Shown here: in pieces, positions 1,343 to 54,914 of the stretch | Position numbering within the stretch: position 1 is the stretch's first letter | Layout of the letters: every line of letters begins with the position of its first letter | From: Octopus vulgaris | Lineage: Eukaryota | NCBI GenBank assembly: GCA_951406725.2 | Contig: OX597843.1 | Coordinates: 17,112,001-17,176,000, forward strand | Reading direction: 5' to 3' | Length of the DNA: 64,000 bases | Notes under the pieces: model-generated | What the model was told of the DNA's origin: nothing | Databases searched by the model: none | What the model saw: the letters and a program-made list of their open reading frames with translations, nothing else | Program-made: the position numbers and the translations under genes

Positions 1343-1424
1343 TGGTCTGCTGCCATATTCTGAAAACCATGACCTTCACTGTCTGTCTCTTTTTTTTCTA
1401 TTTTGTTCTTCTTCTTCTCTAGAT

Positions 1425-2092: not shown

Positions 2093-2125
<33 letters not shown>

Positions 2126-4036: not shown

Positions 4037-4085
<49 letters not shown>

Positions 4086-18490: not shown

Positions 18491-18539
<49 letters not shown>

Positions 18540-18736
18540 CTGATAACAGTGTATTGATAAATGAATCTCTGCCAATCACAGTAAAGTGAGTCTAATAATA
18601 GAGTTTGATGTCACTATGATCTTCAGTGAAGAACGTTCTTGCCTGTAGATTGCAGTGGCATGAAACTAGTCATGTGATAGAAATTTCCTTTCTTGTATTG
18701 AACACTCATCTCTTGTTTGTTTGACACACACACACA

Positions 18737-18776
<40 letters not shown>

Positions 18777-19202
18777 TACACACGTGCATATATATATATG
18801 TATATATATATATACACACACACTTGTATTTATATATACATATATACACGCGCACACACACACAGAAATATTGGTATGATCAATATATGAATTTAATACA
18901 TTCTTACTAATCGTTTCATGATAGATTTAATTTGATCAACTTTCAGCCAATTTAAGATCATGGCCCTTTAATGAAGGCATACTGTCTGATATAATTTACA
19001 ATATGCATAACTATTTTCCTATTAACTGCAACGACACAAGTGTTGCAAGGAGGACAACTCTATTAAACCTTATCTCTACTGAGTAGTTTTCCTCAGGTTT
19101 TACAAAATTTAAGCAGATATCAGAATCAATAAAACAGTGAGAAAAGTTTTAGAAATTATACTTAGATCACGGAAAATAAAACTTTGTGTTCTTGTTGTTG
19201 TT

Positions 19203-28800: not shown

Positions 28801-31800
28801 ATATACACACACACACACATATATGTACATATATTTTCATCATGTTAAACAGTTAACCCCTTCACACTTTTTCTCTCTCCATTTTTTTCCCTCTCAATCC
28901 TTTCTGTTGAAGAGCATAGGCTCGAAACGTCAAATGCTTTTCCATTCTTCCCAAGCATTAAACTAATACATCTGTTTGTTGTTCCCACACCTGTCTTCAT
29001 CTTTTGTTTTCTGTAAATTTTAACTATGCATATATCAGAGACCTTGTCTACCTGCGTAGGTAAGGTAGGCAATGCCTACCTTGAATAAAATAGATCAATA
29101 GCCAAATTTTCCATTTATGAAAAAATATGTACCTAATTCAATAAAATTATGAATGTTACTCTGATTACTATGCATAAAATGTAAAACATTTTTTGTAGAT
29201 TAGGTAGGCATAATTCACCCTTGCTTTTTAATCTCAGTATTTAAGCTACACAGAGTACTGCTGTAGTACACATGCTGCGTACACTCCTACAACACTGTTT
29301 TCTTTACGTGTTTTAAAGGCAGCAGAAGTAAATCTGCCTTCAACTCAGTCATGCATCTGTGTTTCGTTTATTTTTTGTGTGTTTTACTACATACAGGTCA
29401 TCAATTGCCTACACTGCGTAATTACTGACAGCATGTAACTGGCATGTATATATAAATGCATGTCTACATACATATATATCTATGTGTGTGTATGTACACA
29501 TTTATATATATATACACACACATACACCATCATTGTTTAACGTCCGCTTCCCACGCTAGCAAGGGTTGGACAATTTGACTGAGGTCTGGCAAACCGGATG
29601 GCTGCACCAGGCTTCAATCTGATCTGGCAGAGTTTCTACAGCTTGATGCCCTTCCTAGCGCCAACCTCTCCGAAAGTGTGGTGGGTGCTTTTACGTGCCA
29701 CTGGCATGAGTGCCAGTCAGGCGGTACTGGCAACGGCCATTCTCAAATGGTGTTTTTTATGTGCCACCTGCGCTGGAGCCAGTCCAGCGGCACTGGCAAC
29801 GACCTCACTCAAATGTTTTTTCATGTGATACTGGCACAAGTGCCAGTAAGGCGACGCTGGTAACTATCATGCTCGAATAGTGCTTTTTACGTGCCACCGG
29901 CACGGAAGCCAGTGAGCTGCTCTGGCAACGGTCACGCTCGGATGGTGCTCTTAGTGCTCCACTAACACGGATGCCAGTCGATGAATTTGATTTCGATTTC
30001 ACTTGCCTCAACAGGTCTTCACAAGCAGAGTTAAGTGTCCAATGAGGGAAAGGTATGCATAAGTGAGCTGGTTACACCCATGGCATAGGTCACAAGGTTA
30101 TGATCTCACTTGGCTTGCTGGGTCTTCTCGAGCACAGCATATTTCCAAAGGTCCTGATCACTTGTCATTGCCTTGTGAGGCTCAATGTTTGGTCATGCTT
30201 CACCACTTCATCCCAGGTTTTCCTGTGTCTACCTCTTCCACAGGTTCCCTCAACCGCTAGGGTGTGACACTTTTTCACACAGCTATCCTCATCCTTCCTC
30301 GCCACATGACCATACCAGCGCAGTCGTCTCTCTTGCACACCACATCTGATACTTCTTAGGCCCAACTTTTCTCTCAAGGTACTTACACTCTGTCGTGTAT
30401 GAACACTGACATTACACATCCATCAGAGCATAATTCTATGTACTTTTTTCTTGTTTCTCTTTGCAGGTGGTTAACTGCCTACCGAGATGCTATGTCGTTC
30501 AGATTTAGTCACTACTTTGTCAGTTACCTCTCTACCTTATCGCTAACTCTAAACGGACTAGGTTCCACACATGTGAACGGAGAAGTCCTCTGGTATGGCA
30601 TCACTACTTTCTCAGTTTTTTTTTTTTTCTTTCATGTAAGCTGGAAGAGAGAGAGAGAGAGCTTCATTGTGTTTGTGGGAATATCATGTTGTGCCCCAGG
30701 GTGGCCTGAAAAGTTCATAGGCTGACTATGAAGGAGTTATGCTAGAGCTGTGAAATTTTGCACTAATTTCGACCCTTCCAGGGAAACCGATATCTAACTG
30801 TTCAAAGGGGACTTCAGAAGCAACTAGTTGCAATGTCCCTTAAAAATGGACAAAATTTGGCATCATGTTATTGATTATGGACAGAAAAAGAGTTTAGCTC
30901 CCAAAGACATTCATGGTGACATGGTGGCTGCATTAGAGGATGACACTCCAGCTTCATCAGTGCAAAAGTGGGCAGCTAAATTCAAGAGGGGAATGGAGAA
31001 CCTTGAAGATGATCCAAGATTTAGAAAGGATGATCCAAGATTTAGAGAGGATGATCCAAGATTTAGAGAGGATGATCCAAGATTTAGAGAAGATTATCCG
31101 AGATTTAGAGAAGATGATCCGAGATTTAGAGAAGATGATCCGAGATTTAGAGAAGATGATCCGAGATTTAGAGAAGATGATCCGAGATTTAGAGAGGATG
31201 ATCTGAGATTTAGAGAAGATGATCCAGGATTTAGACATTTTGCAGTTGCCACAACTGAGGAAAATAACGATCATCTTTACCACATGGTGATGGATGTCAG
31301 GTGATTGACTATAAATCAAATAGCCAATGGTATTAGCACATCCTGTGGGAGAGTTGCGAGTATTCTGCACAATGAACCTGGCATGACAATGGTTTCTGCT
31401 CAGTGGGTGCCATGTCTTTTGACACCGGATCAGAAGCGCACCAGCAGAAAACCTGACATTGTTTGAGGAGGCAGATCCAGCTGGTTTCCTGGAATGATTG
31501 ATTCTAGTTTCAGCTCACGAGCTGTGGCCATGCTGGGGCACCGCCATTTGTTTGTTTCCTGACCCAGTTTTAGTGGTGGGTTCAACGCTTTGAGCCAGAG
31601 ACACTCTATGCGTTGGAAACACACCCTCCTCACCTGCTTCAAAATGACCTGAGTCATTTCATCTGCACGGAAGGCAATGGTTTCAGTTTTTAGAGAGATA
31701 CAAGAGGCATTGTGTTTATTGACTGTCTTCAAAAGGACCACACCATCATTGGAGAATGCTGTGGGAACTTGCTGAGGCAGTTGCGAACGATTATCAAGCC

Positions 31801-34800
31801 GAAACACCCAGGAAAACTGATGAACAGCAGAAGTTCGCCATTATCTTCTGCTGGAGCCGCGTGGAGCTTAGGTGTTTTGCTCATAAACACACACATCGCC
31901 CGGTCTGAGATTCGGACCCGCGAGTCCGCTGCTCTAACCACTAGGCCATGTGCCTCCACAATCTGCTTATGATCTCATGAAACAAATCTTAATTGCTTGC
32001 AAAAAGGGGACCAAAAAGCTCTTAAAAAAATGGTAGAAGCAGCTTGAGCGTTGTGGGTTGGGTGACTTGGGATCTGTGGGGTTCTTTGGTTGCCCTTGGG
32101 TGGTGCACCCCTCCGTTGGGATTTCGTTTGCTAAGGTTTTTTCGCAAATCATTTTTCTGTTTTACCCTTTTTTATGTAACTCCTCGCAGTCTTTTCTCTT
32201 TGTATTGTCCTGAATGTTTCTGCGGCCCTTGTGGCCAATAAAGAATTATTATTAATGTGGCAAACTGGCAGAATTGTTAGCACACTGGGTATAATGCTTA
32301 GCCACATTTCATCTATCTTTACGTTCTGAGTTCAAATTCCACCAAGGTCAACTTTGCCTTTCATCCTTTCAAGGTCGATAAAATAAGTACCAGTTGCGCA
32401 CTGGGGTCAATGTTATTGACTTACTCCTTCCCCCAAAATTTCTGGCCTTGTGCCAAAATTTGAAACCATTAATATTATTATTATTATTATTAACAAAATG
32501 TTTTTTTTTAAATTTCAACTGTTTTTATTTTTTTATTTCTTTCTGATGGCTGCTTTTATCTGGACCTTGTCTAAATCCCCTATTTCCTTCCACAAAGCTT
32601 GCCAACACCTCAGATCTCTATATCCATACCAAAACCTTAATCCTAACTCACCAACTGCTAGAGGGCTTTTTTTTTGTTATTGTTGTTTAACCCCAGCTCA
32701 GTCCTGATCCAGTTGACCTATGATCAAAGATGTTCCAGTGGTGACCATTCTGCCTTTCATTCTGGCATAGTGTATCCAGGACAACATTATCAAATGTGTC
32801 CTTTTTTGTCATTGTTGTTTAGCCCCAGGTCAGTCCTGATACAGCAGACCTATGATCAAAGATGTTCCAGCTGTGACCATCCCATCTTTTATTCAGACCA
32901 CAATGTATCTAGGACTACATTATCTAACATGTCCCTCATTATTTTTGTTGTTTAAACCCAGATCAACTCTAATCCAATAGTTCTATAATCTGAGACGTTC
33001 CAGCTGTGACCATCCTGTCTTTTATTTAGACATATTATAACTAGGACTTCATTGTCTAACGCAGTGGTTCTCAACCATTTTCTTTTTTGCCTATGGATCC
33101 CTTACATTCTTATTTTACTTGGGTGGGTCCTCAGAGCCTTTCAATGGTTAGAAAATCCTATCATATTTTTATAATTACTGTAAATCCTCGAGTATAATCC
33201 GCATTTTTCCCCAAAATTTAAAAGGTCAAAATCCCTAGTGCGTACTAAATATTTTTGTTGTTTAAACCCAGATCAACTCTAATCCAATAGTTCTATAATC
33301 TAAGACGTTCCAGCTGTGACCATCCTGTCTTTTATTTAGACATATTATAACTAGGACTTCATTGAAAAATAAAACTGAAAAATATTTTCTAAGCAATGTC
33401 TGAGTCTCTATTTGCTGTCTGGCAATGTTTATTCAGACGCATTTTGTGATGTCCGGCACGAAAATACCTTAAGCTAAGCCTGAAAGCAATGAAGTCATAA
33501 AAGAATCATCCATAATTTGCAGTAAGCAACATTTATTAAACGTTATTACTGCTATTTCTTTATTTTCTGCAAACAAAAGTAGATGAATTCAGAGACTTGC
33601 TTCATATGTGAAGGTGGGTTAAATTTCCCCCCACGGGGTGAGGAAGACCCTCTTTCTAATGGTAGACCCCTCCCTCTCATTGACTCGGCTTTTTTTCTGT
33701 TCTGCTGCATACATTTGTCTCTCCCCTCTCATCCCTCCTCCCTCCCTGCTTCTCTTACACTCCTCTCACCCTCTGCCCTTGCCTCTCTGCTCTTACCTCT
33801 ACCTGTTAAGCATGGCTTCAGTCCTCTCCTTGTTACTAGGGACTTTGATGTTACCCGGCCTGCCTACATAGAAGTGCCACGCTCCCTGGTGGAGACTGTT
33901 TCAAACTGGAATATACCAATGCATAACTGGCTCAAGAATTGTAAGTAGAACCATTATTGTAGCTTTCCTTCCTCTTATTCCGTCTGTCTGTCTGTCTGTC
34001 CCTTTTTCTTCCATATTTTCTGTCATCTTTCTCTCTCTCTCTCTCTCTTTCTCTGTTTTCCTTTTGACTAACTACTCCCCTCTTTCTATATATATTTCTT
34101 TTTTTTTTTTTACGACCAGTCCATCAGATGTAGTTACACATCGCTGGTCACAATGCGCTTCACATTGTTTTAGCCCTCGAATGAAGCCACCCCGCTGGCT
34201 AAGCGAGCAGGCCAACAGAAGAAAGAGTGGTGAAAGAGTACAGCAGGGATCACCACCCCCTGCTGGAGCCTCGTGGAGCTTATAGGTGTTTTCGCTCAAT
34301 AAACACACACAATGCCCGGTCTGGGAATCGAAAACACGATCCTACGACCGCGAGTCCGCTGCCCTAACCATTGGGCCATTGCACCTCCTATATATATATC
34401 TTTATCTTATATTAAACTTTTAATACTTTTTGATAGTTATATAATTAAAAATAAATAAATAAAAAAATAAAATAAAATAATAATAATAAAATATATATAT
34501 ATTTATATATTCATATATGAGGGTGAAAAATTAGATATTAATTTAATAATACAATCAGTTTAACACCAAGTGGCCTAGCACATAAAACCAGGGAGACAAT
34601 ACAAATTTATACGTAATTTATATATATATATATTTATATATATATATTTAAAATTTATAAGTTTAAATTATTAATTTAAATAATTTTAAAATTTTAACTT
34701 TAATTTAAATATTTTAATTTGGAATTTTATATTTTTTAATTAATTTTATTTCTATGTATTGGCTTATGTTTTTCACTGTTTGATTTGCCTAATAGTGGTT

Positions 34801-34814
34801 TTATCTCTAATTTA

Positions 34815-34860
<46 letters not shown>

Positions 34861-35693
34861 TCCTCTCTCTGTATTTATATATATATGCACGCATACACAC
34901 ACACACATATTGAGCGAGGTCGTATCCAGTGCCGCTGGACTGGCTCTTGTGCAGGTGACACGTAAAAAACACCATTCGAGCGTGCCCCTTGCCAGTACCG
35001 CCTGACTGGCCCTTGTGCTGGTGGCACGTAAAATCACCCACTAAACTCTCGGAGTGGTTGGCATTATGAAGAGCATCCAGCTGTAGAAACTCTGCCAGAT
35101 CACATTGGAGCCTGGTGCAGCCATCTGGTTCACCAGTCCTCAGTCAAATCGTTCAACCCATGCTAGCATGGAAAGCGGACATTAAACGATGATGATGATG
35201 ATGATGATTATATATATATATATATATATGGGGGAGAGGTAGACCCAGGAAGACATGGGATGAGGTAGTCAAGCATGACCTCAGAGCATTGGGCCTCACT
35301 GAGGCAATGGCGAAAGACCGAGATCTCTGGAGATATGCTGTGACTGCAAAGACCCGGGCTGCTTTCTGCAGCAATTCCACATACCCCCTACCCATTCAAA
35401 GTACCCCGGATCCCCAAAGTACCCCGGACCCAGTTGCCCCCGTGCCGCTGGCACGTTAAAAGCTCAAACCGATCGCGACCAATGCCGGACCCCCCCGGCC
35501 CCTGTGCAGGTGGCACGTAAAAAGCACCCAATCCACTCGTGGAGTGGTTGGCATTAGGAAGGGCATCCAGCCGTAGAAACTCTGCCAAATCAGACTGGAG
35601 CCTGGAGCGGCCCCTGGCTTCCCAGACCCCGGTCGAACCGTCCAACCCGTGCTAGCGCGGAAAACGGACGTTAAACGATGATGATGATGATGA

Positions 35694-35736
<43 letters not shown>

Positions 35737-36259
35737 GCCTGACTGGCCCTCGTGCCGGTGGCATGTAAAAGTACCCACTAAATTCTTTGAGTGGTTGGCA
35801 TTAAGAAGAGTACTTATTTTATCGATCTCTTTTGTCGAATTGCTAAGTTACGGGGATGTAAACACACCAGCATCAGTTGTCAAGCAATATTGGGGGGACA
35901 AACACAGACATACAAACATACACACACACACATATATATATATAGTCATACAATATAGTGCATATTTATACACATAAGGAATCCACTTTATGTGAAATTC
36001 AACACGCTAGAAAGAACAGCTAGGTTCTGTAAACCACAAAAATAACAGATAAAATAACAGTTTACATAACCTAGCTGTTCTTTCTAGCGTGTTGAATTCC
36101 CTTTAAGTGGATTCCTTATGTGTATAAATATACACTATATCATATGACTAATATATAGTTTTCTTGACTAATTTTTTTGCACGTTAGACCACTGGAAATG
36201 TAAATTTTGAGTGAATGTTTTAATTTTAATTAAATTCCATTTCCCTTTGATATGATTAA

Positions 36260-36292
<33 letters not shown>

Positions 36293-39200
36293 ACGGGCTT
36301 CTTTCAGTTTCCGCCTTCCAAATCCACTCACAAGGCTTTGATCGGCCTGAGGCTATTGTCCAAGGTGCCACGCAGTGGGACTGAACCCAGAACCATGTGA
36401 GCCAGCAGGGTTGGAATTACACAAAAGGCAATAGGGGTGCCGAGGGACCCCCTTTTATTTTTGCGCATTTCCACACTATCCATAAAGTAATATTTGTTTA
36501 ATCTTGTATATATGTGTGAGTGCATGATACAGAACAAAAAAAGCTTAGAACTTTATTGGTACGTATTTGTAATTATTAGCGTTTAATGAGGGGTGGGGGA
36601 GTTAAATATAATTTAAGGATTGAAAAAATCCTTTGTTGAAAGAAATCAACATTTTTTATAGTTTTATAAATTATACATCATCATCATCATTTAACGTCCG
36701 TTTTCCATGCTAGCTATGTGTTGGACGATTTTGACTGAGGACTGGCGAACCAGATGGCTGCACCTGGCTCCAGTCTTGATCTGGCAGAGTTTCTACAGCT
36801 GGATGCCCTTTTTAATGCCAACCACTCCGAGAGTGTAGTGGGTGCTTTTTACCTGCCACCTGCATGGGGGCCAGTCAGGTGGTACTGGCAATGACTTCGC
36901 TTGAATCTTTTTACACGTGCCAGTGAAGCGACGTTGGTAACGATCACGCTCAAATTTTTACGTGCCACGGGTACGGAAGCCAGTTGGCTGTTCTGGCAAT
37001 GATCACGCTCGGATGCTGGTTTTGGCACCCTACTAGCACAGGCATAAGTGCCAGTAAGGTGACATATAGCACTAAATATAAAATAAAACAAAATTATTTA
37101 GTATATCGTTTCGTACCGGAACAAATACAAAGAAAACTGACTTATAGTTCATCAGAATATCTGGAAAGAGAACAGAAAAAAATAATTTCACAGAAGGCTA
37201 ATGGGGTTCAGTTGAACCCTAATGACCATGTTTTATGCTGTAACATCCGTACGACTGGAAATTTTTAACTCAAAATTTCTAAGTGCATACATAAACTATT
37301 GACAATAAAAGCCATGAGATATAAAATCATTTAAATAAAAAAAAATATCAAAGTTACATAACTTTCAAAATTTTCTGGGGTTCCAAGAAGCGGTTCCATG
37401 CTCCTCTTAACCCTGAAACTCCTGAATCAGGGCCCCACTACTGGATGTAGTTCAGTCACACACATACCAGGCTTACACACACACGCACACACCAGGCTTC
37501 CACACAGTCTCCAAAATTTATTCTCAAAGCATTGGTTGGTCTGGTGCTATAACAAAAGGCGTCGAGCTGACAGAATCGTCATCACGCCGAGCGAAATGCT
37601 TAGTGGTATTTAGTCTGTCTTTATGTTCTGAGTTCAAATTCCGCCGAGGTTGACTTTGCCTTTCATCCTTTCAGGGTCAATTAAATAAATACCAGTTACG
37701 CACTGGGGTCGATAAAATCAGCTTAATCCGTTTGTCTGTCCTTGTTTGTCCCCTCTGTGTGTAGCCCCTTGTGGGCAGTAAAGAAATAGGTATTTCGTCT
37801 GCCGCTACGTTCTGAGTTCAAATTCCACTGAGGTCGACTTTGCCTTTCATCCTTTCGGGGTTGGTTAAATAAGTACCAGTTACGCACTGGGGGTCCATAT
37901 AATCGACTTAATCCGTTTATCTGTCCTTGTTTGTCCCCTCTGTGTGTAGCTCCTTGTGGGCAGTAAAGAAATAAGAAGTCACTTGTCCAAGGTGCTGTGC
38001 AGTGGGACTGAACCCCCAGACTGCATAGTTTCAAAGCAATCGTCTTAGCCATCCATACACACATCCTGTATTTATGTTTAACCTTTTCTTTTTCAGATGT
38101 CTTCAAAATTGCTCGTCCTCTTGGTAACTTTGTTGCCGTGTTGCTCACATATGCTGCTAGCTCACTGCTGCACGTAAGTTGATAGCAAGTTTTTCCGTAG
38201 TCTCTGCACTTGCTTTTTTTTTTTATCTTGCATGAAAATGTCTCATCACATCTTTGTCCTTTTAATCTGAGAAGAGTCATGGGGGAAGAGTTTTTAAGCA
38301 CACCATCCATAAATATAAATATAAACTACATCTTACAGCTGTTTCGGCCATGCAGATAAGTATGTCCCATTTTACTTATATTAGCCATTTATTGTAGGTC
38401 AATATGTAGTTATAAATGAGATGTTTACAAAAATATCCTAAGGCCTCTTCGGAGGTTATGTGATACAAATCAGAAGGGTCATGGGGGAAGAGTTTTTAAG
38501 CCAACCATCCATTGGGTCCTGACAAAAGGGTCATGGGGGAAGAGTTTTTAAGCACACCATCCATTGGGTCCTGTCAGAAGGGTCATGGGGGAAGAGTTTT
38601 TAAGCGCACCATCCATTGGGTCCTGTCAGAAGGGTCATGGGGGAAGAGTTTTTAAGCATACCATCCATTGGGTCCTGTCAGAAGGGTCATGGGGGGAGAG
38701 TTTTTAAGCCAACCATCCATTGGGTCCTGTCAGAAGGGTCATGGGGGAAGAGTTTTTAAGCACACCATCCATTGGGTCCTGTCAGAAGGGTCATGGGGGA
38801 AGAGTTTTTAAGCCAACCATCCATTGGGTCCTGTCAAAAGGGTCATGGGGGAAGAGTTTTTAAGCCAACCATCCATTGGGTCCTGTCAGAAGGGTCATGG
38901 GGGAAGAGTTTTTAAGCGCACCATCCATTGGGTCCTGTCAGAAGGGTCATGGGGGAAGAGTTTTTAAGCGCACCATCCATTGGGTCCTGTCAAAAGGGTC
39001 ATGGGGGAAGAGTTTTTAAGCACACCATCCATTGGGTCCTGTCAAAAGGGTCATGGGGGAAGAGTTTTTAAGCACACCATCCATTGGGTCCTGTCAGAAG
39101 GGTCATGGGGGAAGAGTTTTTAAGCGCACCATCCATTGGGTCCTGTCAGAAGGGTCATGGGGGAAGATTTTTTAAGCGCACCATCCATTGGGTCCTGTCA

Positions 39201-39775
39201 GAAGGGTCATGGGGGAAGAGTTTTTAAGCACACCATCCATTGGGTCCTGTCAGAAGGGTCATGGGGGAAGATTTTTTAAGCGCACCATCCATTGGGTCCT
39301 GTCAGAAGGGTCATGGGGGAAGAGTTTTTAAGCACACCATCCATTGGGTCCTGTCAGAAGGGTCATGGGGGAGGAGTTTTTAAGCGCACCATCCATTGGG
39401 TCCTGTCAAAAGGGTCATGGGGGAAGAGTTTTTAAGCGCACCATCCATTGGGTCCTGTCAGAAGGGTCATGGGGGAAGAGTTTTTAAGCGCACCATCCAT
39501 TGGGTCCTGTCAGAAGGGTCATGGGGGAGGAGTTTTTAAGCACACCATCCATTGGGTCCTGTCAGAAGGGTCATGGGGGAAGAGTTTTTAAGCACACCAT
39601 CCATTGGGTCCTGTCAGAAGCAACTGTCTCTAATTATTATGTGTATTTATTCACATTGTTTTGCTTATATAAGTAAAAACGTTACAGTTATTTAATGAAA
39701 CAAGCCTAAATTCATGATTATTTTAGAATTTAATTGAAACTCATGAGGGGTGTATTTTGGTCAGAAATATAGTAA

Positions 39776-39821
<46 letters not shown>

Positions 39822-40281
39822 ACCTCTGGTCTGTTCTTCTTCTGACTCTTTCCTTCTCTTCCTCCTCCTCTACCTCTGAATCACCTCCACCCCCACCTTG
39901 CATACTTATCCATATCAACTCATCTGCACTACTTTCATTTGTTGCAGGGACTGAACTTTCAGCTAGCTGCTGTGCTACTATCTCTGGCCTTCTACTCATA
40001 TATAGAACATGGTAAGTACGAGCACTTCGCTTCAACCTGGCAAACCACACCTTCTGCTTTTACAAAACAATAAAACAATAAAAACTGTGAAAAAGACCAA
40101 AAAAGTTGTTTTGGTTTCCACAACTTGAATTATTTGTCTCCCTCTCTCCTCTGACCACCACTACCCACCCATTCAACGTTTTTTTTGATGTCCTGTACCC
40201 ATATATGTATGTATATATACATGTAGATGTAGGTTCGTACATATATGTATGTATATATGCATATGTTTTATTTATTAATTC

Positions 40282-40320
<39 letters not shown>

Positions 40321-43300
40321 TAAATATTAGGGAATAAATCCAAACTTACAGGGAAAAATCAGATTTAGGATTGAATCCAATTTTATAGTAAAATATTATA
40401 TTATATTAAATTAGAGACAAAACCACTATTAGGCAAATCAAACAATGAAAAAATTAAGCCAATACATGTGATTAATTTATATTATTTAAATATGTAACAA
40501 AATTATTAAAAAAATATAATTAATATCACACTACGATCGTTTCATGCCTGCTAACATCTTCAAATTTTTGAGTCGCAGTCATTCATCAGGTGGTTTAAAT
40601 ATTTAAACCACCTGATGAATGACTCAAAAATTTGAAGATGTTAGCAGGCATGAAACGATCGTAGTGTGATATTAATTATATTTTTTTAATAATTTTGTTA
40701 TATATTTAAATGGTTCGAATCTCAGACCAGGCGACGTGTGTGTTTATGAGCGAAACACCTAAGCTCCACGCAGCTCCGGCAGAAGGTAATGGCGAACTTC
40801 TGCTGACTCTTTCGCCACATCTTTCTCTCACTCTTTCCTCCTGCATCTTGCAGCTCACCTGCGACGGACCAGCGTCCTGAACAGGTGGGGAACCTATACG
40901 CCAAGGGAACCGGGAAACCGGCCCTTATGAGCCAGGCATGGCTCGAGAAGGAACAAACAAACAACAGTGGACATGCGGTCGAGGGATCGCTGGTTCGAAT
41001 CTCAGACCGGGCGACGTGTGTGTTTATGAGCAAAACACCTAAGCTCCACGCGGCTCCAGCAGAAGGTAATGACAAACTTCTGCTGACTCTTTCGCCACAT
41101 CTTTCTCTCACTCTTTCCTCTTGCATCTCACCTGCGACGGACCAGCGTCCTGAACAGGTGGGGAACCTATACGCCAAGGAACCGGGAAACCGGCCCTTAT
41201 GAGCCTTGCATGGCTTGAGAAGGAAAATACAACATACATAAATATATCTTTACCTCTCTCTCATTTTTATGTCTCTTTACAGTTTTCAGACAGAAGCTGG
41301 CTAAAATATATGATGCCTGTATCTTGGCCAAAAAATGTAAAGACAACTGCAGCCATTCTGCTAAATGGGTGAGTATCTCTCGGGATTTCTGGTGAACTGG
41401 TAGAAAGGGTTTTGCTAGTTCTACTCTGGTTCCTCCCAGTGGTTTTCATTTTTACAAAGGAGTTCCTTAGTAGGGACACAGTCATTGGTTTCCTTTTAAC
41501 TGTTACTTGTTTCAGCCACTGGACCGCGGCCATGCTGGAGCACTGCCTTGTGTTTAGTTGAACAAATTTACCCCAGTATTTTTAAAGTCTGGTACTTATT
41601 TTATCAGTCTCTTTTGCCGAACCACTAAGTTACGTGGTCATCAACACTATTGTGCTTACAACCCACCATTGCTTGACAACCAAAGACACACACACACACA
41701 TATATATGTATGATACTGCTCTACATCTTAGAATATGTTTCTTCTTTCGGGTTTACGTTTTTTACAAATGATATATATATATTTTTTAATAATATATTAT
41801 TATTATTATTAATATAAGGAGATTAATATCCAAACTCATCATAAAGATATATCCGTGTAAAAATACTTATATATATATATATATATATACTAGCAGTATC
41901 GCCCGGCGTTGCTCGGGTTTGTAAGGGAAATAACTATATAAGCATTTTTAGAGATGTAAAGTATAATAGCCATCTCAATATGGCTAACCACAAGGGGTGG
42001 GGATTACTGTAGCTTTTTACGTTCTGAGATTTAATAATACATTTTTAGAGAGTTGCTTCCCTTATATAATAGCAAAAAATGTGCATTAAAAATGCGGAAA
42101 AATTATAGTAAATTTTTTTTAAATCGGAGACTCATCGTAGACGCATGCTAATACCCAGAAGGGCTCGATATGAATCACAACTATAAGATACCCGGTTTTG
42201 GTTAAACTGCACCGCAAAATATGGGAGTAGTTAGGAATCTAAATCGTAGGAGACAGACACCACACAACCTCACTTTTATATATATATAGATATATATAAA
42301 TAAATATAAAAATATATGTAAATATGTATAAATGTAAGTATAATGTATAAATAAATTTGATATTTTAAAAGTTTTGAATTAATTATTTAAGCATCTTACG
42401 ATTGTTTCGCAGAAGAGTTGTCCCTATAATGAAGTCCTATATTGATAAGCATTTATAGACAACTAGTCTATAGTGCCAAAGATCCCTGCAATGCCATCAC
42501 GCTTTAGGACCAGCTTCTGCAACAGCCTGGGTTTCAAGGGCCCACAGCTTTTTAATATTCTCCCAAAGAGTCTGAGGAACTTGCACAAAGTAGATGTAGC
42601 GGTTTTTAAATCAAAGCTGGACATCTTCCTGTCGAGAGTCCCAGATGAACCTACCTCACGGCAAGAGGTGCAAATGAGAGTAGCTATATCAAACTCCATT
42701 CTTCACCAAGTGCCACATATTAGAGGAGGCTCTTAGTAATAACAGTGTAGCACAAAACGGCGGTGCATCAGCATGGCCGCAGCTCTGAGCTGAAACAAGA
42801 AAAACGATAAAACTCTTCTGCTCTTCAGAGATATAAACTATGAATATTGTATAATATATTGAATGATAGATTTTTTATTAAAAATTTGAAGTAAAACTGT
42901 AAAATGGTAAAGTATAATAGCCATCTCAATATGGCTAACCACTAAGGGTGGGTGTTACTGTAGCTTTTTAGCCCCAGGAGATCATCGTCTCCAGCTGGCT
43001 TTAGGCACACTATCTGTGCCCTTATGGTATTTGCAAAGGGAGGCCATCCCTTTCTCGTAAGCCTAAGTGATACGCACTGGACCGCGGTTTCGAGGTTATT
43101 GCCTCTTATCAACGGGCGGTAATCACCGGATCACGATGAAAGAGAAAGCCTGTATGCAAATATATAAGAGTTTTTCTAGTAACTTCAGTCACTGATTTCG
43201 AAAAACTGTCTGCGGTGTTTGTTTGAAATATAAATTAAAAATTAAAAATTACTACTTTTGATGATAGTCTTTAAATCCATATATTCTTCCTTGGTTATTT

Positions 43301-45054
43301 TTCTGCAGTAATATGTATGTATGTAGATATATATATATATATATATATATTGAAGGCTAAACCCTTCAATGCTATGCCCCAGTATGGCCACAGTCCAGTA
43401 TAAGACATGGACACTGTCTGAGGCCCTTAGGAGCAACCTGAACTCCTTTGATAGAGAGAGAGATAGATGGCTAGATGTGATGAGCTTCTTTCTGTTTCCG
43501 TCTACCAAATCCACTCAAAAAGCTTTGGTCTGCCTGAAGCCATGGTCGAAGACGCTTGCTGAAAATGCCATGCTGTGGAACTGAACCTGGAACCATGAAA
43601 TATTTTGTTTTGTTGCCCTACCAATTCTGTTAATCCAGTGTCTCCACATTAGAGATTATTATCTCTTATATAAAATCCATTCTGTCTGTCTGTGTGTGTG
43701 TGTCTTCTAGGATCTCGGGCATCCTCCATTCAATTGCACTCAAATTTGATATGTAGATACCGACGGTATCAGGGCGTGTGTAAGTCTTGAAAAAATTACA
43801 AAATTCGATTCCAGGTGAGAATGCGATCAATAAAGCCGCGGGAAATAATTTTTTGGGGGAATAGAAAAAAATTCTATCTTTATTTCTTCTTTTGCTGGTG
43901 TCTCAAATTTAGGTTAAATCAGTGTTTCTGAAAGAGGAGGCCTATGGGACAGACGGACAAGTTGTTTTGAGAAAATTTGGTTTAAATGTTTGACAACTCA
44001 ACACTGTCCATTGGACGGGGGGCATTTTGCTCTTCTATTATATAAAATCCATTCTGTCTGTGTGTGTGTGTGTCTTCTAGGATCTCAGGCATCCTCCATC
44101 CGATTGTGCTCAAATTTGATATGTAGATACTGACGGTATCAGGGCATGTATAAGTCTTGAAAAAATTACAAAAATCAATTCCAGGTGAGAATGCGATCAA
44201 TAAAGCCGTGGAAAATCATTTTTCTTTGGAATAGAAAAGAAGTCTATCTTTATTTCTTCTTTTGCTGGTGTCTCAAATTTAGGTTAAACCAGTGTTTCTC
44301 AAAGGGGAGGAATATGGGACGGACGGACAAGTTGTTTTGAGAAAATTTGGTTTAAATGTTTGACAACTCAGCACCATCCATTGGACGGGGGGGGGGGGCG
44401 TTTTGCTCATTGATTCATAATTTTAGTGTAAGGTCTCAAATGTTAGTTGAGAAGGGTGTTTGTGATTGGTACTTCATGTGAATTTCTCTCTTTTTCCAGA
44501 ACAATCCATATGTCCTGATAACCAATCTGGCGTTTGGTCTCTTATCAATCTTTCACCTGGCCTACCTTGGTCTTATGTTTGACAGCAGCTCTCAAGAAGA
44601 GAAGGTAAGTATTGAGCTAGTCTCTCTGTCTCTCTCATATATATTACTCTTTACTCTCTTTTACTTGTTTCAGTCATTTGACTGCGGCCATGCTGGAGCA
44701 CCGCCTTTAGTCGAGCAAATCGACCCCGGGACTTATTCTTTGTAAGCCTAATACTTATTCTATCGGTCTCTTTTGCCGAAACGCTAAGTTACGAGGACGT
44801 AAACACACCAGCATCGGTTGTCAAGCAATGCTAGGGGGACAAACACAGACACACAAACATATACACACATATATATATATATATACATATATACGACGGG
44901 CTTCTTTCTGTTTCTGTCTACCAAATCGACTCACAAGGCTTTGGTCGGCCCGAGGCTATAGTAGAAGACACTTGCCTAAGGTGCCACACAGTGGGACTGA
45001 ACCCGGAACCATGTGGTTGGTAAACAAGCTACTTACCACACAGCCACTCCTACG

Positions 45055-45102
<48 letters not shown>

Positions 45103-47893
45103 TATATTAATATATGTGTGTAAGTTATAAATGACAAGAGAAATAGTATGATAAAAATTAATTTAGCTATAAGAAAATTCAAATATCAAGACAAATTGTT
45201 TCGTAACTTAAGCATGTAAAGATAATTTATTTTGTTATATTTAATAATAAATAAATTACTTACCTGTCTGTGTTAATACAAATAATCCTTTAAAACAATG
45301 CAGAAATGAAGCTACATCCTCAGGTGAACTCTTAATTTCTGTATTGTTTTAAATGACTTTTTGCATAAATGCAGACAGGTGAGTAATTTATTCATTATCT
45401 TTATATATAAAATTCAAGTTGTGTGTGTGTGAGACTCTGTCTCCTCCGATTTAGATTCTTAATTACTCCCACATTTTGCGGTGCAGTTTAACCAAAAGTG
45501 GGTATCTTATAGTCGTCATTCATATCGAGCCCTTCTGGGTGCGCGTATACAATGAGTCTACAATTTAAAAAAAAAAAAATTTACCATAATTTTTCCGCAT
45601 TTTTAATGGTTTTTGCTCGGGTTATATAAGGGAAGTAACTCTCTAAAAATGCTTATATAGTTATTTCCCTTACAAACCCAAGCAACGCCGGGTGATACTG
45701 CTAGTTAAATATAATAATACAAATTATCTTTACATGCTTTAAGTTACGAAACAATTTGTCCATATATTTGAATTTTCTTATAGTTAAATAAATTTTATCA
45801 TACTATATTTCTCTGATCATTTATAACTTTATAAACTCCTTATCATTTTCTTTTGTACCAAACTGTATTTTCTATATGTCTCCAGTAATTCATATATCTA
45901 AAAAGAAGTATACTCTAATGCATTAGAGCAGTAATGTAGTTTTTGAGAAATTAAAAGTTATGGTTGGTCAGAGAGTGACCATTGGGTTCACACCTATAAA
46001 GCACTTACCTGTATAGGTGACTTGGCTGTCTATGCTGCTAAACGCTTTATAGGTGCAAAACCAATGGTCACTCTATGACTGGCCATGACTTTTGATTTCC
46101 ATAGATATACTCTTTACTCTTTGACTTGTTTCAGTCATTTGACTGCGGCCATGCTGGAGCACCGCCTTTAGTCGAGCAACTCGACCCCGGGACTTATTCT
46201 TTGTAAGCCCAGTACTTATTCTATCGGTCTCTTTTGCCGAACCGCTTAGTGACGGAGACGTAAACACACCAGCATTGGTTGTCAAACAATGCTAGGGGGA
46301 CAAACAGACACACATACACATGTATATACACACAGACACATACACATGTATATATATACATATATATACGACAAGCTTCTTTCAGTTTCCGTCTACCAAA
46401 TCCACTCACAAGGCATTGGTCGGCCCGGGGCTATAGCAGAAGACACTTGCCCAAGATGCCACACAGTGGGACTGAACCCGGAACCATGTGGCTAGTTAGC
46501 AAGCTACTTACCACACAGCCACTCTTTATATTAATAATATAAGGGTCAATAATTATTAATTTCAAAAATTAATAATTATTACCAAGTAGTTTAGTATGGA
46601 AATAGAACCATTATCGGTAAGAACTTTTACAAAAAGTTCTTTATATATATATATATATATATAATTAGGGTTATATTTTAAGGGCTAAAAACCACTATGT
46701 GGACAGCCATATGCTAGAAATAGATCACCTATGATCAAACTACAAAGAAAAGAATGTTCTGTAGAGGAAAATTCAGCGGACACCAGAACAATAGGCGGGC
46801 AAGACAGATGAAAATTATATAAAAATCAAGAATTAATCGCAGACCAGTTTCGTCTAGCCCTTAAAATATACAGATGTACTAGAATTTTCTCTGATTTTTC
46901 AGATTTTTGTATGCTAGGCTACTGGCTTTAAATTGATATTAATTAAATTAATATTCAATTTATCTCCCTCATCATTTAAATGTTTAATTAGGGTTATATA
47001 TATATATATATAAAAACTTACTTGGAGGAAACAAAACGAAACGACGCGAGGGCGCTCAGTCATACAATAGTGTAATAAATAAAGTATATGCATACATACA
47101 TACATACATATATGTACGTACCTACATCTACATGTATATATACATGCATATATAAATATATATATGTGAGTACAGGACACCACAAATAGACGTAGAACTC
47201 AACAAGAAACGACGGACTTTTTTTAACAACGAAAAAACAGAGTACAAGACAAACAACACAAGGAATATTCCCCTTCATCAGCTGCAGCAGAAAATTCAAC
47301 AAAACCTGTTACTCTGAGTTTCCTGTTGCCGATGAACGGCAACGGGAAACTCAGAGTAACAGGTTTTGTTGAATTTTGTGCTGCTTTAAATAAAGCATGT
47401 TACTCTACCACTGGTATTTGAGTACTCTTTTTCCCACCTTGTTTCACATTTATGTGTTTACACCGGTATATATATATATATATCATCATTTAATGTCTGT
47501 TGTCCAAGCAGGCATGGGTTGGGCAGTTTGTCTAGAGTTAGATACCTGAGAAGCTACACCAGACTTCAGTTTGATTTGGCATGGTTTCTACGGCTGGACA
47601 CCCTTCCTAAGGACAACCAATTTAGTGTGTACTGGGAGCTTTTGCATACATAGACACACACACACACACACACACATGAGTGTGTGTTTTTTATGTTTCA
47701 CATGTATACATGTATGTATGTCTGATTAAATGTGTCTGTAAGTTGATTCAGTAAAAAACCTCGCTCACTTCTCCAAACCCTTTTCTATTTTCAGGGCTAC
47801 GACATGCGGCACACACTGGACAAATGGTCGTCCCTGGGCTTCCTTAGCCACTGGGTGGCATCTGGGACCTTCCTCTTTCACCTCTTGATATGA
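1425..47893 (+). CDS. PORCN: Protein-serine O-palmitoleoyltransferase porcupine (MBOAT family); 12 coding exons, 481 aa
   Basis: Manual splice: 1425-1659, 10253-10466, 18116-18159, 22729-22916, 24902-25008, 30467-30592, 33840-33940, 38097-38173, 39948-40011, 41283-41368, 44500-44604, 47795-47893 = 1446 nt. All introns are GT-AG, phases match and there is no internal stop. Motifs resemble vertebrate PORCN: [81 protein letters not shown]. Confidence 0.97.
1705..2283. mobile_element. SINE A: 5' half on + (1705-1871) joined to a near-full copy on - (1872-2283)
   Basis: Same sequence as 931-1342, in both orientations. Confidence 0.85.
2610..2890 (-). mobile_element. tRNA-derived SINE, family C; related copies at about 31825-31960(-), 34115-34388(-), 40711-41225(+, two tandem partial copies)
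   Basis: Minus-strand head GGAGGCACATGGCCTAGTGGTTAGAGCAGCGGAC...GGTTCAAATC has A and B boxes and recurs in the window. Confidence 0.8.
4000..6390. repeat. (TA)n/(CA)n/(TACA)n microsatellite field with a ~48-bp minisatellite (ACATGTGATGACAGTAA(CA)nTATACAAAG) at about 5370-5630
   Basis: Direct inspection. Confidence 0.95.
6673..7480 (-). mobile_element. RTE-clade LINE 3' fragment with (ATG)n tail; further copies at about 3145-3572(+), 19660-20370(-), 21853-22240(-), 25070-25625(+), 27088-27995(-), 29528-30430(-), 35230-35697(+), 52370-52622(+)
   Basis: ORF 7212-7448 [22 protein letters not shown]...GRGRPRKTW is a typical RTE C-terminus; copies share the 3' UTR GGCGTTAGGAAGGGCATCCAGC and end in ...TTAAACGATGATGATG. 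Confidence 0.85.
8237..8600 (-). mobile_element. Non-autonomous Helitron
   Basis: Minus strand starts TC, ends CTAG with subterminal hairpin CCCGAGCAACGCCGGG, and sits between A and T; same family as 41890-42290 and 45398-45704. Confidence 0.8.
9062..10178 (+). mobile_element. Tandem cluster of SINE family B (~185-bp units; core resembles the MetaSINE domain); also at about 12080-12495(-), 26473-26890, 37560-37975, 49910-50145
   Basis: Repeated GTTCTGAGTTCAAATTCCGCCGAGGTCGACTTTGCCTTTCATCCTTTCGGGGTCGATAAATTAAGTACCAG. The Meta assignment is from memory of the consensus. Confidence 0.8.
10253..10466 (+). CDS. PORCN: PORCN coding exon 2
   Basis: ttctccag|GTCGC...CTACT|gtaagt; encodes [29 protein letters not shown]...VVLIIILL. 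Confidence 0.93.
10547..11172 (-). mobile_element. SINE A full copy plus duplicated 5' half; further SINE A copies at about 23037-23451(-), 25688-26103(+), 44647-45057(-), 46109-46524(-), 49188-49586(-)
   Basis: Sequence identity to 931-1342. Confidence 0.85.
11275..11566 (+). mobile_element. Fragment of a second RTE/RTEX-type LINE ORF
   Basis: [26 protein letters not shown]...[11 protein letters not shown] is a typical post-RT region of RTE-like elements. Confidence 0.7.
13781..17940 (+). mobile_element. Duplicated CR1-like LINE 3' end with internal tandem expansion, ending in (TTA)n
   Basis: [21 protein letters not shown]...[12 protein letters not shown] is the CR1-clade C-terminus; 3' UTR and (TTA)n tail at 17800-17940. 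Confidence 0.8.
14349..17800 (+). repeat. Tandem array of ~123-125-bp units (~28 copies) derived from the LINE 3' end
   Basis: Unit GCTGAAGCATGGAACAAACTGCCGGCATCAG...CCCCTCCATACACAC; copies near-identical. Confidence 0.97.
18116..18159 (+). CDS. PORCN: PORCN coding exon 3 (44 nt)
   Basis: tttcattag|GGAGCTG...AGGG|gtaagt; encodes [15 protein letters not shown] (human EMHMVDTVTWHKMRG). Confidence 0.95.
18288..18780 (+). repeat. ~250-bp direct tandem duplication just downstream of exon 3
   Basis: GCTGATAACAGTGTATTGATAAATGAATCTC...TTTGA(CA)n occurs twice, starting at 18288 and 18539. Confidence 0.9.
20465..20826. repeat. Fold-back palindrome, ~160-bp arms with ~40-bp spacer
   Basis: caacataacatggcaa...tgtaatttagccccaggagac is mirrored by gtctcctggggctaaattacag...ttgccatgttatgttg. 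Confidence 0.9.
21250..22517 (-). mobile_element. Internally deleted mariner element interrupted by an RTE tail
   Basis: TIRs TTGGGTCATCCCATAAATAATG / CATTATTTATGGGATGACCCAA; minus-strand remnants QDNAWPH and [13 protein letters not shown]. Confidence 0.8.
22729..22916 (+). CDS. PORCN: PORCN coding exon 4
   Basis: gacag|GTTCC...CCAATG|gtgagt; encodes [15 protein letters not shown]...[20 protein letters not shown]. Confidence 0.96.
24902..25008 (+). CDS. PORCN: PORCN coding exon 5
   Basis: ctttacag|AATTTA...TGGAA|gtaagt; encodes [36 protein letters not shown]. Confidence 0.94.
28901..28934 (+). ncRNA. Degenerate minimal hammerhead-like motif (Penelope-type)
   Basis: TTT CTGTTGA A GAGC-ATAG-GCTC GAAAC GTC AAA; palindromic ACGT stem III; core has A6>U. 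Confidence 0.45.
30467..30592 (+). CDS. PORCN: PORCN coding exon 6
   Basis: ttgcag|GTGGTTA...CTCTG|gtatgg; encodes [22 protein letters not shown]...GEVLW. Confidence 0.95.
30697..31825 (+). mobile_element. Decayed mariner transposase relic containing an 11 x 21-bp in-frame expansion (31005-31235)
   Basis: [15 protein letters not shown]...[20 protein letters not shown]; later [15 protein letters not shown] and [19 protein letters not shown]; several stops and frameshifts. Confidence 0.85.
33840..33940 (+). CDS. PORCN: PORCN coding exon 7
   Basis: ttactag|GGACTTT...AAGAATT|gtaagt; encodes [33 protein letters not shown]. Confidence 0.96.
35941..36152. repeat. Fold-back palindrome, ~90-bp arms
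   Basis: cacataaggaatccactt...aattcaacacgctagaaagaacagctaggtt is mirrored by aacctagctgttctttctagcgtgttgaatt...aagtggattccttatgtg. Confidence 0.9.
38097..38173 (+). CDS. PORCN: PORCN coding exon 8 (ends with the catalytic His)
   Basis: tttcag|ATGTC...CTGCAC|gtaagt; encodes [26 protein letters not shown]; the His is equivalent to human H341. Confidence 0.96.
38330..38456 (-). ncRNA. Type I hammerhead-ribozyme-like motif
   Basis: Minus strand: ACCT CCGAAGA GGCC-(~92 nt)-GGCC GAAAC AGCT GTA AGAT; palindromic stem III ACAGCTGT; core has U4>C. Confidence 0.55.
38471..39620 (+). repeat. 52-bp minisatellite, ~22 copies, with one detached partial unit at about 38271-38310
   Basis: Unit CAGAAGGGTCATGGGGGAAGAGTTTTTAAGCACACCATCCATTGGGTCCTGT. 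Confidence 0.97.
39948..40011 (+). CDS. PORCN: PORCN coding exon 9
   Basis: ttgcag|GGACTG...CATG|gtaagt; encodes [21 protein letters not shown]. Confidence 0.96.
40529..40592 (-). ncRNA. Type I hammerhead ribozyme motif with intact core
   Basis: Minus strand: CAC CTGATGA ATGACTGC-GAC-TCAAA-AA-TTTGA-AGATGTTA-GCAGGCAT GAAAC GATC GTA GTG; palindromic stem III ACGATCGT. Confidence 0.75.
40609..40666 (+). ncRNA. Type I hammerhead ribozyme motif (inverted copy with a 6-nt deletion in stem II)
   Basis: CAC CTGATGA ATGACT...AGGCAT GAAAC GATC GTA GTG. Confidence 0.68.
41283..41368 (+). CDS. PORCN: PORCN coding exon 10 (zinc-binding C-x5-C-x3-C-x-H)
   Basis: ctttacag|TTTTC...AAATGG|gtgagt; encodes [29 protein letters not shown] (human ACVLSKRCPPDCSH). 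Confidence 0.95.
41890..42290 (-). mobile_element. Non-autonomous Helitron carrying an extra internal segment
   Basis: CTAG end with CCCG/CGGG hairpin and TC start; same family as 8237-8600. Confidence 0.8.
42393..42832 (-). ncRNA. Type I hammerhead motif split by a LINE 3'-end insertion in loop II
   Basis: Minus strand: ATCT CTGAAGA GCAGAAGAGTT ...[~390 nt]... AACTCTTCTGC GAAAC AATC GTA AGAT; perfect 11-bp stem II and 4-bp stem I. Confidence 0.7.
42469..42808 (+). mobile_element. 5'-truncated CR1-like LINE 3' end (family of 52740-54880)
   Basis: [22 protein letters not shown]...[14 protein letters not shown] matches ORF 54370-54798; shared tail CAGCATGGCCGCAGCTCTGAGCTGAAAC. Confidence 0.88.
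43067..43126 (-). ncRNA. Compact type I hammerhead motif, U3-A8 core variant
   Basis: Minus strand: GTGATTACCGCCCG TTGATAA GAGG-CAATAA-CCTC GAAAC CGCG GTC CAGTGCGTATCAC; palindromic stem III ACCGCGGT. Confidence 0.65.
43662..44410 (+). repeat. ~370-bp tandem duplication of a Helitron-like 5' segment
   Basis: TATATAAAATCCATTCTGTCTG...CATTGGACGGGGG occurs twice (about 43667 and 44039). Confidence 0.75.
44500..44604 (+). CDS. PORCN: PORCN coding exon 11
   Basis: tttccag|AACAAT...GAGAAG|gtaagt; encodes [35 protein letters not shown]. Confidence 0.96.
45188..45326 (-). ncRNA. Hammerhead-like motif with a long AT-rich loop II
   Basis: Minus strand: CTGAGGA T GTAGCTT-(~100 nt)-AAGTTAC GAAAC AATTT GTC; stem I is weak. 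Confidence 0.5.
45398..45704 (+). mobile_element. Non-autonomous Helitron (307 bp)
   Basis: 5' TC, 3' CTAG, hairpin CCC-AAGCAACGCC-GGG; inserted at A|T with no target-site duplication. Confidence 0.88.
45961..46085. repeat. Small hairpin/MITE-like inverted repeat (~42-bp arms)
   Basis: agagtgaccattgg...cacctataaagc is mirrored by gctttataggtg...ccaatggtcactct. Confidence 0.8.
47284..47384. repeat. ~100-bp palindrome whose right arm carries a 5'-truncated hammerhead-like motif (47329-47358)
   Basis: 48-bp arms around a 5-nt spacer; + strand reads CCGATGA ACG-GCAA-CGG GAAAC TCAGA GTA. Confidence 0.8.
47795..47893 (+). CDS. PORCN: PORCN last coding exon with stop codon
   Basis: ttttcag|GGCTAC...ATATGA; encodes [32 protein letters not shown]. 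Confidence 0.96.
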   Translation, partial: GYDMRHTLDKWSSLGFLSHWVASGTFLFHLLI

Positions 47894-52071: not shown

Positions 52072-52621
52072 GTATATATATATATGTATATATATATATG
52101 TATATATATGTATATATATGTATATATATGTGTTATATATGTATATATATATATGTGTATATATATATATGTGTGTATATATATATATGTATATATATAT
52201 ACATGTGTGTATATATATATATATATATATATGTGTATATATATATGTGTATATATATATATGTGTATATATATATATGTGTATATATATGTGTATATAT
52301 ATATGTGTATATATATATATGTGTATATATGTGTATATATATGTATGTGTATATATATGTATGTATATGACTCGTGGCCGATGCCAGCGCCGCCTCGACT
52401 GGCTTCCGTGCCGGTGGCACATAAAATACACCAATCTGACCGTGGCCGTTGCCAGCCTCGCCTGGCACCTGTGCAGGTGGCACGTAAAATGCACCCACTA
52501 CACTCACGGAGTGGTTGGCGTTAGGAAGGGCATCTAGCTGTAGAAACATTGCCAGATAAGACTGGAGCCTGGTGCAGCCTTTTGGCTTCCCAGATCCCCG
52601 GTCGAACCGTCCAACCCATGC

Positions 52622-52666
<45 letters not shown>

Positions 52667-52739
52667 GTGTATGTATATATATGTGTATGTATATATATAT
52701 GTATATATATATATGTATATATATATACATACATATATG

Positions 52740-54880: not shown

Positions 54881-54914
54881 ATATATATACATACAATACA
54901 TTTGAATACAGATA

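Follow-up and report, generated by a model that had tools for sequence, protein, structure and literature searches.

The window, a stretch of 64,000 nucleotides of the Octopus vulgaris genome, contains eight motifs that very probably represent hammerhead ribozymes in broken-off pseudo-LTRs (pLTRs) of seven families of Penelope-like elements (PLEs), four of which are linked to reverse transcriptase (RT)/GIY-YIG open reading frames (ORFs), and that are likely inert at their present sites. They are predicted hammerheads, and cutting itself is a prediction from sequence. The original prediction of Penelope-type type I hammerheads from several families with palindromic stem III is supported; the motifs belong to seven dispersed repeat families, here termed A-G.

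Hammerhead motifs in the window

All eight right halves (GAAAC, palindrome, GUH) listed in the original prediction were recovered at their positions, and two further ones, at 45748+ and 47306-, were detected. The complete motif that had been described for each of the eight was intact in place in only three cases, namely 40529- and 40609+, both with a canonical core and stems I and II of 3 bp each, and 28901+, which has the core CUGUUGA. The remaining five are damaged, split or truncated: stem I is reduced to 2 bp in 38330- and to 1 bp in 43067- (whose true core is UUGAUAA), its first pair is broken in 45188-, its 5' strand is lost in 47329+, and a LINE piece of 346 nt divides 42393-, leaving its 5' half at 42811-42832. 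The motifs 40529- and 40609+ are the two arms of a single insertion.

With a loose descriptor that tolerated a single change in the core and required a stem II of 3 bp or more and a near-palindromic stem III, six motifs were detected in positions 28851-47450, far above the 0.5 ± 0.6 found in 100 dinucleotide shuffles, none of which reached six; this comparison had been named beforehand as a check of the motifs, which they passed. When a stem I of at least 2 bp was required, four motifs were obtained (shuffle mean 0.07), and with at least 3 bp three (shuffle mean 0.04), numbers that were likewise reached in 0 of 100 shuffles. The first strict descriptor, demanding at least 4 bp in stem I, gave no motif, and Rfam in E-value mode reported no hammerhead family among its 122 matches to the window at E ≤ 1. 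The blank Rfam result, the short stems (3-4 bp) and the lowest-energy folds of the monomers, which contained the hammerhead in none of seven cases (z -1.6 to +0.9, the fold-back of family F apart), are what could be expected if the matches had arisen by chance in AT-rich repeats. This explanation, however, is already refuted by the shuffles of this region, is contradicted by an excess in the 600-kb genomic sample described below and by the location of the motif at the expected place in full elements, the pLTRs, and can be given virtually no weight.

Elsewhere in the window, a 251-bp direct pair at 18287-18783 (+), 98% alike, carries a GAAAC-UA-GUC palindromic half in each copy, with no convincing core or stem I beside these halves.

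Repeat families and their insertion pattern

The family searches, in which the best 40 of 641-4,337 candidates each were used, gave identities of approximately 79-98%. The location of the family copies in the window is listed in Table 1.

Table 1. Copies of the seven repeat families, their predicted hammerheads and the PORCN gene in the window.
Feature	Position	Strand	Details
Family G, truncated 3' pLTR of putative Neptune-clade PLE	28837..29035	+	hammerhead 28901-28934
Family G hammerhead	core 28904-28910	+	core CUGUUGA (A6U) with an extra A; 4-bp stem II; ACGU as stem III
PORCN	30456..47893	+	exons matched to solved porcupine chains plus splice/frame exons
PORCN exons with PDB match to porcupine chains	~30456-30593, 33841-33939, 47798-47890	+	
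PORCN exons from splice signals and frame	38097-38173, ~39948-40011, 41283-41368, 44500-44604	+	
Family B fragment between 52-bp minisatellite units	38309..38474	-	hammerhead 38330-38456
Family B hammerhead	core 38446-38452	-	core CCGAAGA (U4C, family-wide); core to GAAA 100 nt
Family A, putative Hydra-clade pLTR, long arm of head-to-head insertion	40315..40601	-	ends in (TA)n
Family A long-arm hammerhead	40529-40592	-	canonical core; stem III ACGAUCGU
Family A short arm	40602..40711	+	hammerhead 40609-40666; 6-nt deletion in loop II
Family D, putative Hydra-clade pLTR, three pieces	42295..43312	-	42295-42464, 42811-42908, 43214-43312
Family D hammerhead halves	3' half in 42295-42464; 5' half in 42811-42908	-	core CUGAAGA 42822-42828
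LINE 3' fragment inside stem II of family D hammerhead	42465..42810	+	73% like LINE end 54532-54871
Retrozyme-like family C copy (incomplete, with most of the circularly permuted 355-nt unit), nested in family D	42907..43213	-	
Family C hammerhead	43077-43115	-	U3-A8 core UUGAUAA 43106-43112; stem I damaged
Family E, older, copies 79-90% alike	45122..45328	-	hammerhead 45186-45327
Family E hammerhead	core 45317-45323	-	core CUGAGGA; stem II 7 bp; core to GAAA ~114 nt
Family E inverted second arm	45331..45879	+	interrupted by other repeat ~45400-45704
Family F, pLTR of young putative Hydra-clade family with intact 711-aa ORFs	47284..47483	+	ends in (TA)n

At the family level, the type I core C3-U4-G5-A6-N7-G8-A9 ... 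G12-A13-A14-A15, U16-H17 was found except in family G. The first core segment is canonical in families A, D, and E, begins with CUG or CCG in F, and reads CCGAAGA in B, UUGAUAA in C, and CUGUNGA in G. The family copies have defined 3' ends, which lie 100-450 nt beyond the ribozyme and in most cases within (TA)n (for family B in 20 of 20). They are 5'-truncated, often with an inverted arm; partial tandems are also present. Truncation at the 5' end, an inverted arm and an end in (TA)n are the insertion signature of PLEs (PMC8557442).

In the window, the two arms of family A form a 91-bp inverted repeat (99%) on the PORCN strand, and the second arm of family E retains the 3' hammerhead half (45748-45763) as the sole remnant of the motif. 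The copy of family F has a fold-back centred on the core at 47329-47335, and the cut predicted for the copy of family G lies after 28931. Two opposite copies of one other repeat occur at 41889-42280, where it contains a 66-nt piece of family C, and at 45400-45704, where it interrupts family E.

Motif density in the genome

A background sample of 60 stretches of 10 kb (600 kb), spread in position over the chromosomes, contained 26 motifs of 17 families according to the strict descriptor, compared with a mean of 1.2 over 20 shuffles; 22 of the motifs were in the first 40 stretches and four in the last 20. Stems I and II differ in sequence among the 17 families and yet all pair, and stem III is a perfect palindrome in 21 of the 26 motifs. 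The genome thus harbors the large and diverse hammerhead population that had been proposed, with stem covariation across families. Bootstrapping gave a genome-wide estimate of 1.2 × 10^5 motifs (0.7-1.7 × 10^5), approximately one per 25 kb, for a genome size of 2.8 Gb in 227 contigs.

The impression of a cluster, by contrast, was not borne out. The window has three strict motifs where 2.8 are expected from the background sample, and 200 kb of neighbouring DNA contain seven. With the loose descriptor, the count in the 18.6-kb region was higher (six against approximately 2.1 expected; Poisson probability about 0.02, calculated by hand for a region chosen post hoc). Counting by BLAST, with a library of the families found in the window, also gave a higher number there, namely 10 in 64 kb against 13 in 400 kb and five in 200 kb elsewhere. 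The choice of the region and the origin of the library from the window bias these two counts. The intronic motif density is unremarkable, and the supposed cluster is ordinary for this genome.

Linkage to RT/GIY-YIG ORFs

Linkage to Penelope RT/GIY-YIG ORFs, for which a search had been suggested, was found for families A, D, F, and G, which are tied directly to such ORFs elsewhere in the genome; in the window itself, tblastn confirmed the reported absence of any such ORF. Full elements read pLTR (with hammerhead), ORF, pLTR (with hammerhead). The further idea that the motifs mark mainly non-autonomous elements is not supported, since these four families are the pLTRs of elements with RT/GIY-YIG ORFs, and young copies with intact ORFs exist for families F and G. 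Nor is the kind of element unannotated: an octopus Hydra-clade PLE with a hammerhead, Hydra-1_Obim, is contained in the supplement of PMC8557442.

Families A, D, and F are putatively assigned to the Hydra clade and family G to Neptune. The Hydra-clade assignment is based on homologs and motifs. In family A, locus L031 contains a hammerhead, an RT/GIY-YIG ORF broken into four pieces, a long 3' region and a second hammerhead. This ORF matches PLE-like proteins and is 82-90% identical to an intact sister ORF of 837 amino acids, in which the motifs RWK (as KWK), DKT, the CxCX5C linker, CxxC, and CxH are all present and CCHH is absent. The protein of one element has a relative from Octopus bimaculoides. 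The pLTR of family F lies approximately 200 nt before intact ORFs of 711 amino acids, which contain RWK, DKT, CxxC, and CxH and have one linker cysteine changed; eight compared copies are 99.0-99.9% alike. Family D has the arrangement pLTR-ORF-pLTR in locus L365, where the ORF is too broken for motif reading and was placed by its identity of 36-47% to Hydra-type ORFs. Pfam reported no relevant family for the four pieces of the L031 ORF, two intact Hydra-type ORFs, or two pieces of the ORF in locus L288 (family G). Loci L135-L164 contain at least five groups of Hydra-type ORFs with open frames of 680-850 amino acids, several of which are accompanied by hammerheads of their own, with CCGAAGA as the core in some.

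For family G, an old copy in L288 has a decayed ORF upstream, one piece of which was used as query, with the best 150 matches of 11,336 candidates taken. In nine of the 16 longer stretches fetched, a long ORF is flanked by a hammerhead at either end, and these nine two-ended elements are 99.4-99.7% alike; in the 14 best stretches the ORF has 820-1,200 open codons. Pfam recognized RVT_1 (E 1.4e-7) and, below the Pfam cut-off, GIY-YIG (E 0.007), and the ORF contains DKG, a CSRPRCRTC linker, YIDD, and CxxC in GIY-YIG. These motifs agree with the features of Neptune (DKG, a CX2-5CxxC linker before GIY-YIG, a CCHH-type motif and (TA)n targets) and do not discriminate between Neptune and Nematis. 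The putative name Neptune also leans on sequence likeness. BLASTP found no match between the L288 piece and a Hydra-type protein, which places family G in another clade than the Hydra-type families. A candidate link of family G to an ORF in locus L152 was rejected, as a (TA)n run and the pLTR of another family intervene.

The link is weak for family B, one locus of which has a same-strand C-terminal ORF piece upstream (E ~1e-7 to 1e-6) and another an inverted ORF piece; a search of three longer stretches found only short C-terminal pieces. No RT/GIY-YIG ORF that can be tied to family C or E was found.

A retrozyme-like family

Family C consists of a non-coding, circularly permuted unit of 355 nt with a type I hammerhead, which agrees with the definition of retrozymes as non-coding head-to-tail units of 150-450 nt with such a hammerhead. 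No ORF was found in 20 loci. One of these (L063) has a head-to-tail tandem of the unit and several show the circular junction, while most copies are monomers. Family C probably is a non-autonomous retrozyme moved by the same enzymes as the PLEs, and it is the only one of the seven that looks like one. Another tandem repeat of approximately 345 nt, the hammerhead of which is of the U3-A8 type with UUGAAAA as core and a stem II of 4 bp, occurs in loci L002, L004, and L031 (9250-9900), inserted beside or into family A elements, and is a second retrozyme candidate.

If all motifs belonged to non-coding retrozymes, that is, small circular RNAs independent of autonomous elements and merely resembling PLE ends, the permuted, tandem and ORF-free units of family C would be readily explained, as would the lack of an ORF link in family E and the predominance, in every family, of short copies that lack an ORF. 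Families A, D, F, and G, however, stand as paired repeats around RT/GIY-YIG ORFs, and their flanks are not circular permutations, which makes this explanation improbable.

A changed core position in family G

Of 57 aligned copies of family G, 54 have U at core position 6, and exact 30-mers with U, A, and G at this position were counted 14,944, 158, and 45 times, respectively. As the A6 form is 3.5 times as frequent as the G6 form, a small A6 subfamily may exist within the family. Position 7 varies in the aligned copies (C 24, T 17, A 12, G 4). The A6 of the type I core thus is replaced, and family G is regarded as a variant hammerhead rather than a consensus one. Its register was fixed by alignment of a sister family that has the same plan and A6; an alternative register with the core UUGAAGA was rejected because stems I and II are lost and the register breaks in the A7 and C7 subfamilies. 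Young intact elements have the CUGUUGA core and a GUU site at both ends, and the copy in the window resembles L288 (82%) more closely than the young subfamily (74%). The family with this minimal plan and a canonical A6 core was observed at L195:2591-2642 and L220:9951-10000 and offers a natural control for the exchange.

For the natural A6C hammerhead of phage Bcep176, a measured cutting rate of less than 0.1 per min and rescue by Mn2+ are reported (PMC3088659, PMC7151607). By analogy to this slow ribozyme, the U6 hammerhead of family G probably cuts slowly. A search of the literature, covering open-access papers and part of their supplements, found no report of A6U hammerheads, and the fixed A6U core in a young and abundant family goes beyond the known picture.

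An intron before the ribozyme in family A

Family A has a 700-nt GT..AG intron that ends 13 nt before the core. Exact copies of the spliced junction (n = 267) outnumber those of the intron-retaining acceptor (n = 72) and the donor (n = 24). All three exon-end alleles occur in both spliced and intron-retaining copies; the intron thus was lost more than once, as splicing followed by reverse transcription predicts. In 21 of the 23 spliced junction copies found in the retrieved loci, exon 1 sequence extends for 7-29 nt, and in none for longer; the remaining two, the arms in the window, are too short for the extent to be called. A transcription start near -29 is inferred. The spliced cDNAs cross an intact cut site and their RNA template therefore would have been uncut, which suggests that uncut, spliced family A RNA was reverse-transcribed, with splicing itself deduced from the DNA copies. 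A spliced joint in one contig of a presumed RNA run was rejected as proof of splicing because the joined form exists as DNA. A search of sequencing runs with family F listed none recorded as RNA. No report of intronless PLE copies outnumbering intron-retaining ones was found in the literature search, and the excess of spliced copies goes beyond the known picture.

A pyrimidine-rich tract and an AG were also observed 10-12 nt before the core at L161:1270-1300 (family F) and L146:1170-1191 (the sister of family A), which suggests the same intron end in these families.

The host gene PORCN

Seven of the eight motifs lie between confirmed exons of PORCN, in agreement with the placement in introns of this gene, while for motif 28901, which precedes the first of these exons, a position in an intron is inferred; PDB searches with two candidate exons farther upstream gave no match. 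Three motifs and one half are on the strand of the gene, and together with the loose motif count in the post hoc region this might suggest that intronic ribozymes cut or regulate PORCN pre-mRNA and that a cluster was kept for this reason. The density at background level contradicts such a role, as do the states of the sense copies: 28901 has A6U and a 3-bp stem I, 40609 is locked in the 91-bp hairpin, 47329 lacks stem I, the fourth is a half, and none has a same-strand partner of its family. The copies moreover show ordinary decay and nested insertions. A regulatory role is hence very improbable, and cutting of PORCN pre-mRNA by any of the eight motifs is not likely. Since those on the gene strand have A6U, are hairpin-locked or are halves, the copies in the window are likely inert leftovers of PLE insertions.

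Several other repeats were observed in the window. A PORCN intron contains a 52-bp minisatellite (38470-39620; 22 copies, 96% alike) with the 165-nt family B fragment between its units, and a 125-bp tandem array of approximately 28 units (93-95% alike) at 14348-17801 has a unit translation resembling the C-terminal end of a LINE RT. On the 3' side of PORCN are what we take, from their motifs, to be broken LINEs at 52525-54900 (+; RT) and 59993-61555 (-; endonuclease), and presumably a mariner-type transposase remnant at 62161-62882.

Proposed mechanism

In the proposed mechanism, transcription would start in the upstream pLTR, the leader would be spliced, and the RNA would extend across the ORF and the pLTR that follows it. 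The endonuclease of the element would nick (TA)n, and RT would start at an internal site of the RNA that lies 3' of the ribozyme; the template is presumed uncut because the cDNA crosses the cut site. Early RT stops would leave solo pLTRs. A start at the 3' pLTR would lead to truncated or full elements and a start at the 5' pLTR to spliced leader copies; in family A, spliced 5' transcript ends would make up much of the template, and copying up to the transcript start would give intronless copies of approximately 300 nt. The short palindromic stem III in the parent RNA would need two copies (a dimer) or an element protein to cut, and cutting would probably be slow, slower still in family G. A palindromic stem III implies that cutting takes place in dimers (PMC4209133), and for a lizard PLE in vitro, an internal RT start on uncut RNA, cutting by the ribozyme only with protein, and equally good insertion with a dead ribozyme were reported (PMC11167929).

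Octopus PLEs could possibly keep the hammerhead as a fold that needs no cut before copying, a protein-gated or structural signal that places internal RT, with solo pLTRs being leader run-off copies rather than truncated 3' ends. This tentative reading, which we consider doubtful on balance, builds on family G, the most abundant of the young families, whose A6U core, often with GUU, is predicted to be almost inactive in more than 10,000 copies, on the drift of N7 in this family while the stems stayed fixed, and on the hundreds of copies of a spliced, uncut 5' leader left by family A. The genome offers natural tests of what the hammerhead contributes to PLEs: a young A6U Neptune family beside a same-plan A6 sister family, canonical Hydra families with intact ORFs, and spliced and unspliced copies as a record of which RNA was copied. 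The approximately 10^5 estimated motifs, none of which was found by Rfam in the window, also matter for repeat annotation.

Comparison with known elements

PLEs of Octopus vulgaris are an annotated and partly active class according to PMC13282606, the passages of which seen here do not mention ribozymes, and a search of open-access literature on octopus and cephalopod hammerheads found neither A6U nor an excess of spliced copies. The Hydra clade of C-terminal EN+ PLEs, which includes Hydra-1_Obim, shares with the sister ORF of family A the motifs RWK/KWK, DKT, CxCX5C, CxxC, and CxH, and likewise targets (TA)n, carries a canonical hammerhead close to its 3' end and shows 5' inversions as well as partial tandems (PMC8557442). 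Compared with the published description of this clade, the octopus has many families, some of them young with intact ORFs, with 33-114 nt from core to GAAA in A, B, D, and E, the U4C core in B, one linker cysteine fewer in the ORF of F, and the 700-nt 5' UTR intron with its surplus of spliced copies in A (PMC8557442).

Such an intron has a counterpart in Penelope of Drosophila virilis, where it also lies in the 5' UTR shortly after the start and has its 3' end beside hammerhead stem I, but it is 75 nt long as compared with 700 nt in family A (PMC2377424, PMC4209133) and is described as retained in most copies, whereas spliced copies of family A are ahead by 267 to 72.

Similarly, family C resembles metazoan non-LTR retrozymes in its non-coding unit of approximately 355 nt, type I hammerhead and head-to-tail arrangement, with units of 350-390 bp in mussels (PMC7229834, bioRxiv 10.64898/2026.07.22.740005), but differs in its mostly dispersed monomers with PLE-type inversions and a U3-A8 core. 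The genome total estimated here is no record, as the axolotl has up to 120,000 hammerheads (PMC7229834, bioRxiv 10.64898/2026.07.22.740005). The largest counts in PMC4209133 are approximately 9,000 (Xenopus tropicalis), compared with an estimated 10^5 or so in the octopus.

Family G follows the plan of the minimal hammerheads of metazoan PLEs including Neptune, with a short stem I, CUGxNGA plus an extra base, stem II and GAAAC-GU-H (PMC4209133). The U3-A8 core and opposite-strand pairs 100-700 bp apart have also been described already, whereas the part of the alignment in PMC4209133 that was examined has no row with U at position 6 or from a cephalopod. Phage Bcep176 likewise has a natural change at core position 6, but this is A6C in one phage sequence, as opposed to A6U in a retroelement family that is young and exceeds 10,000 copies. 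The motifs thus are of a known kind, and the fixed A6U core and the excess of spliced copies are what is new.
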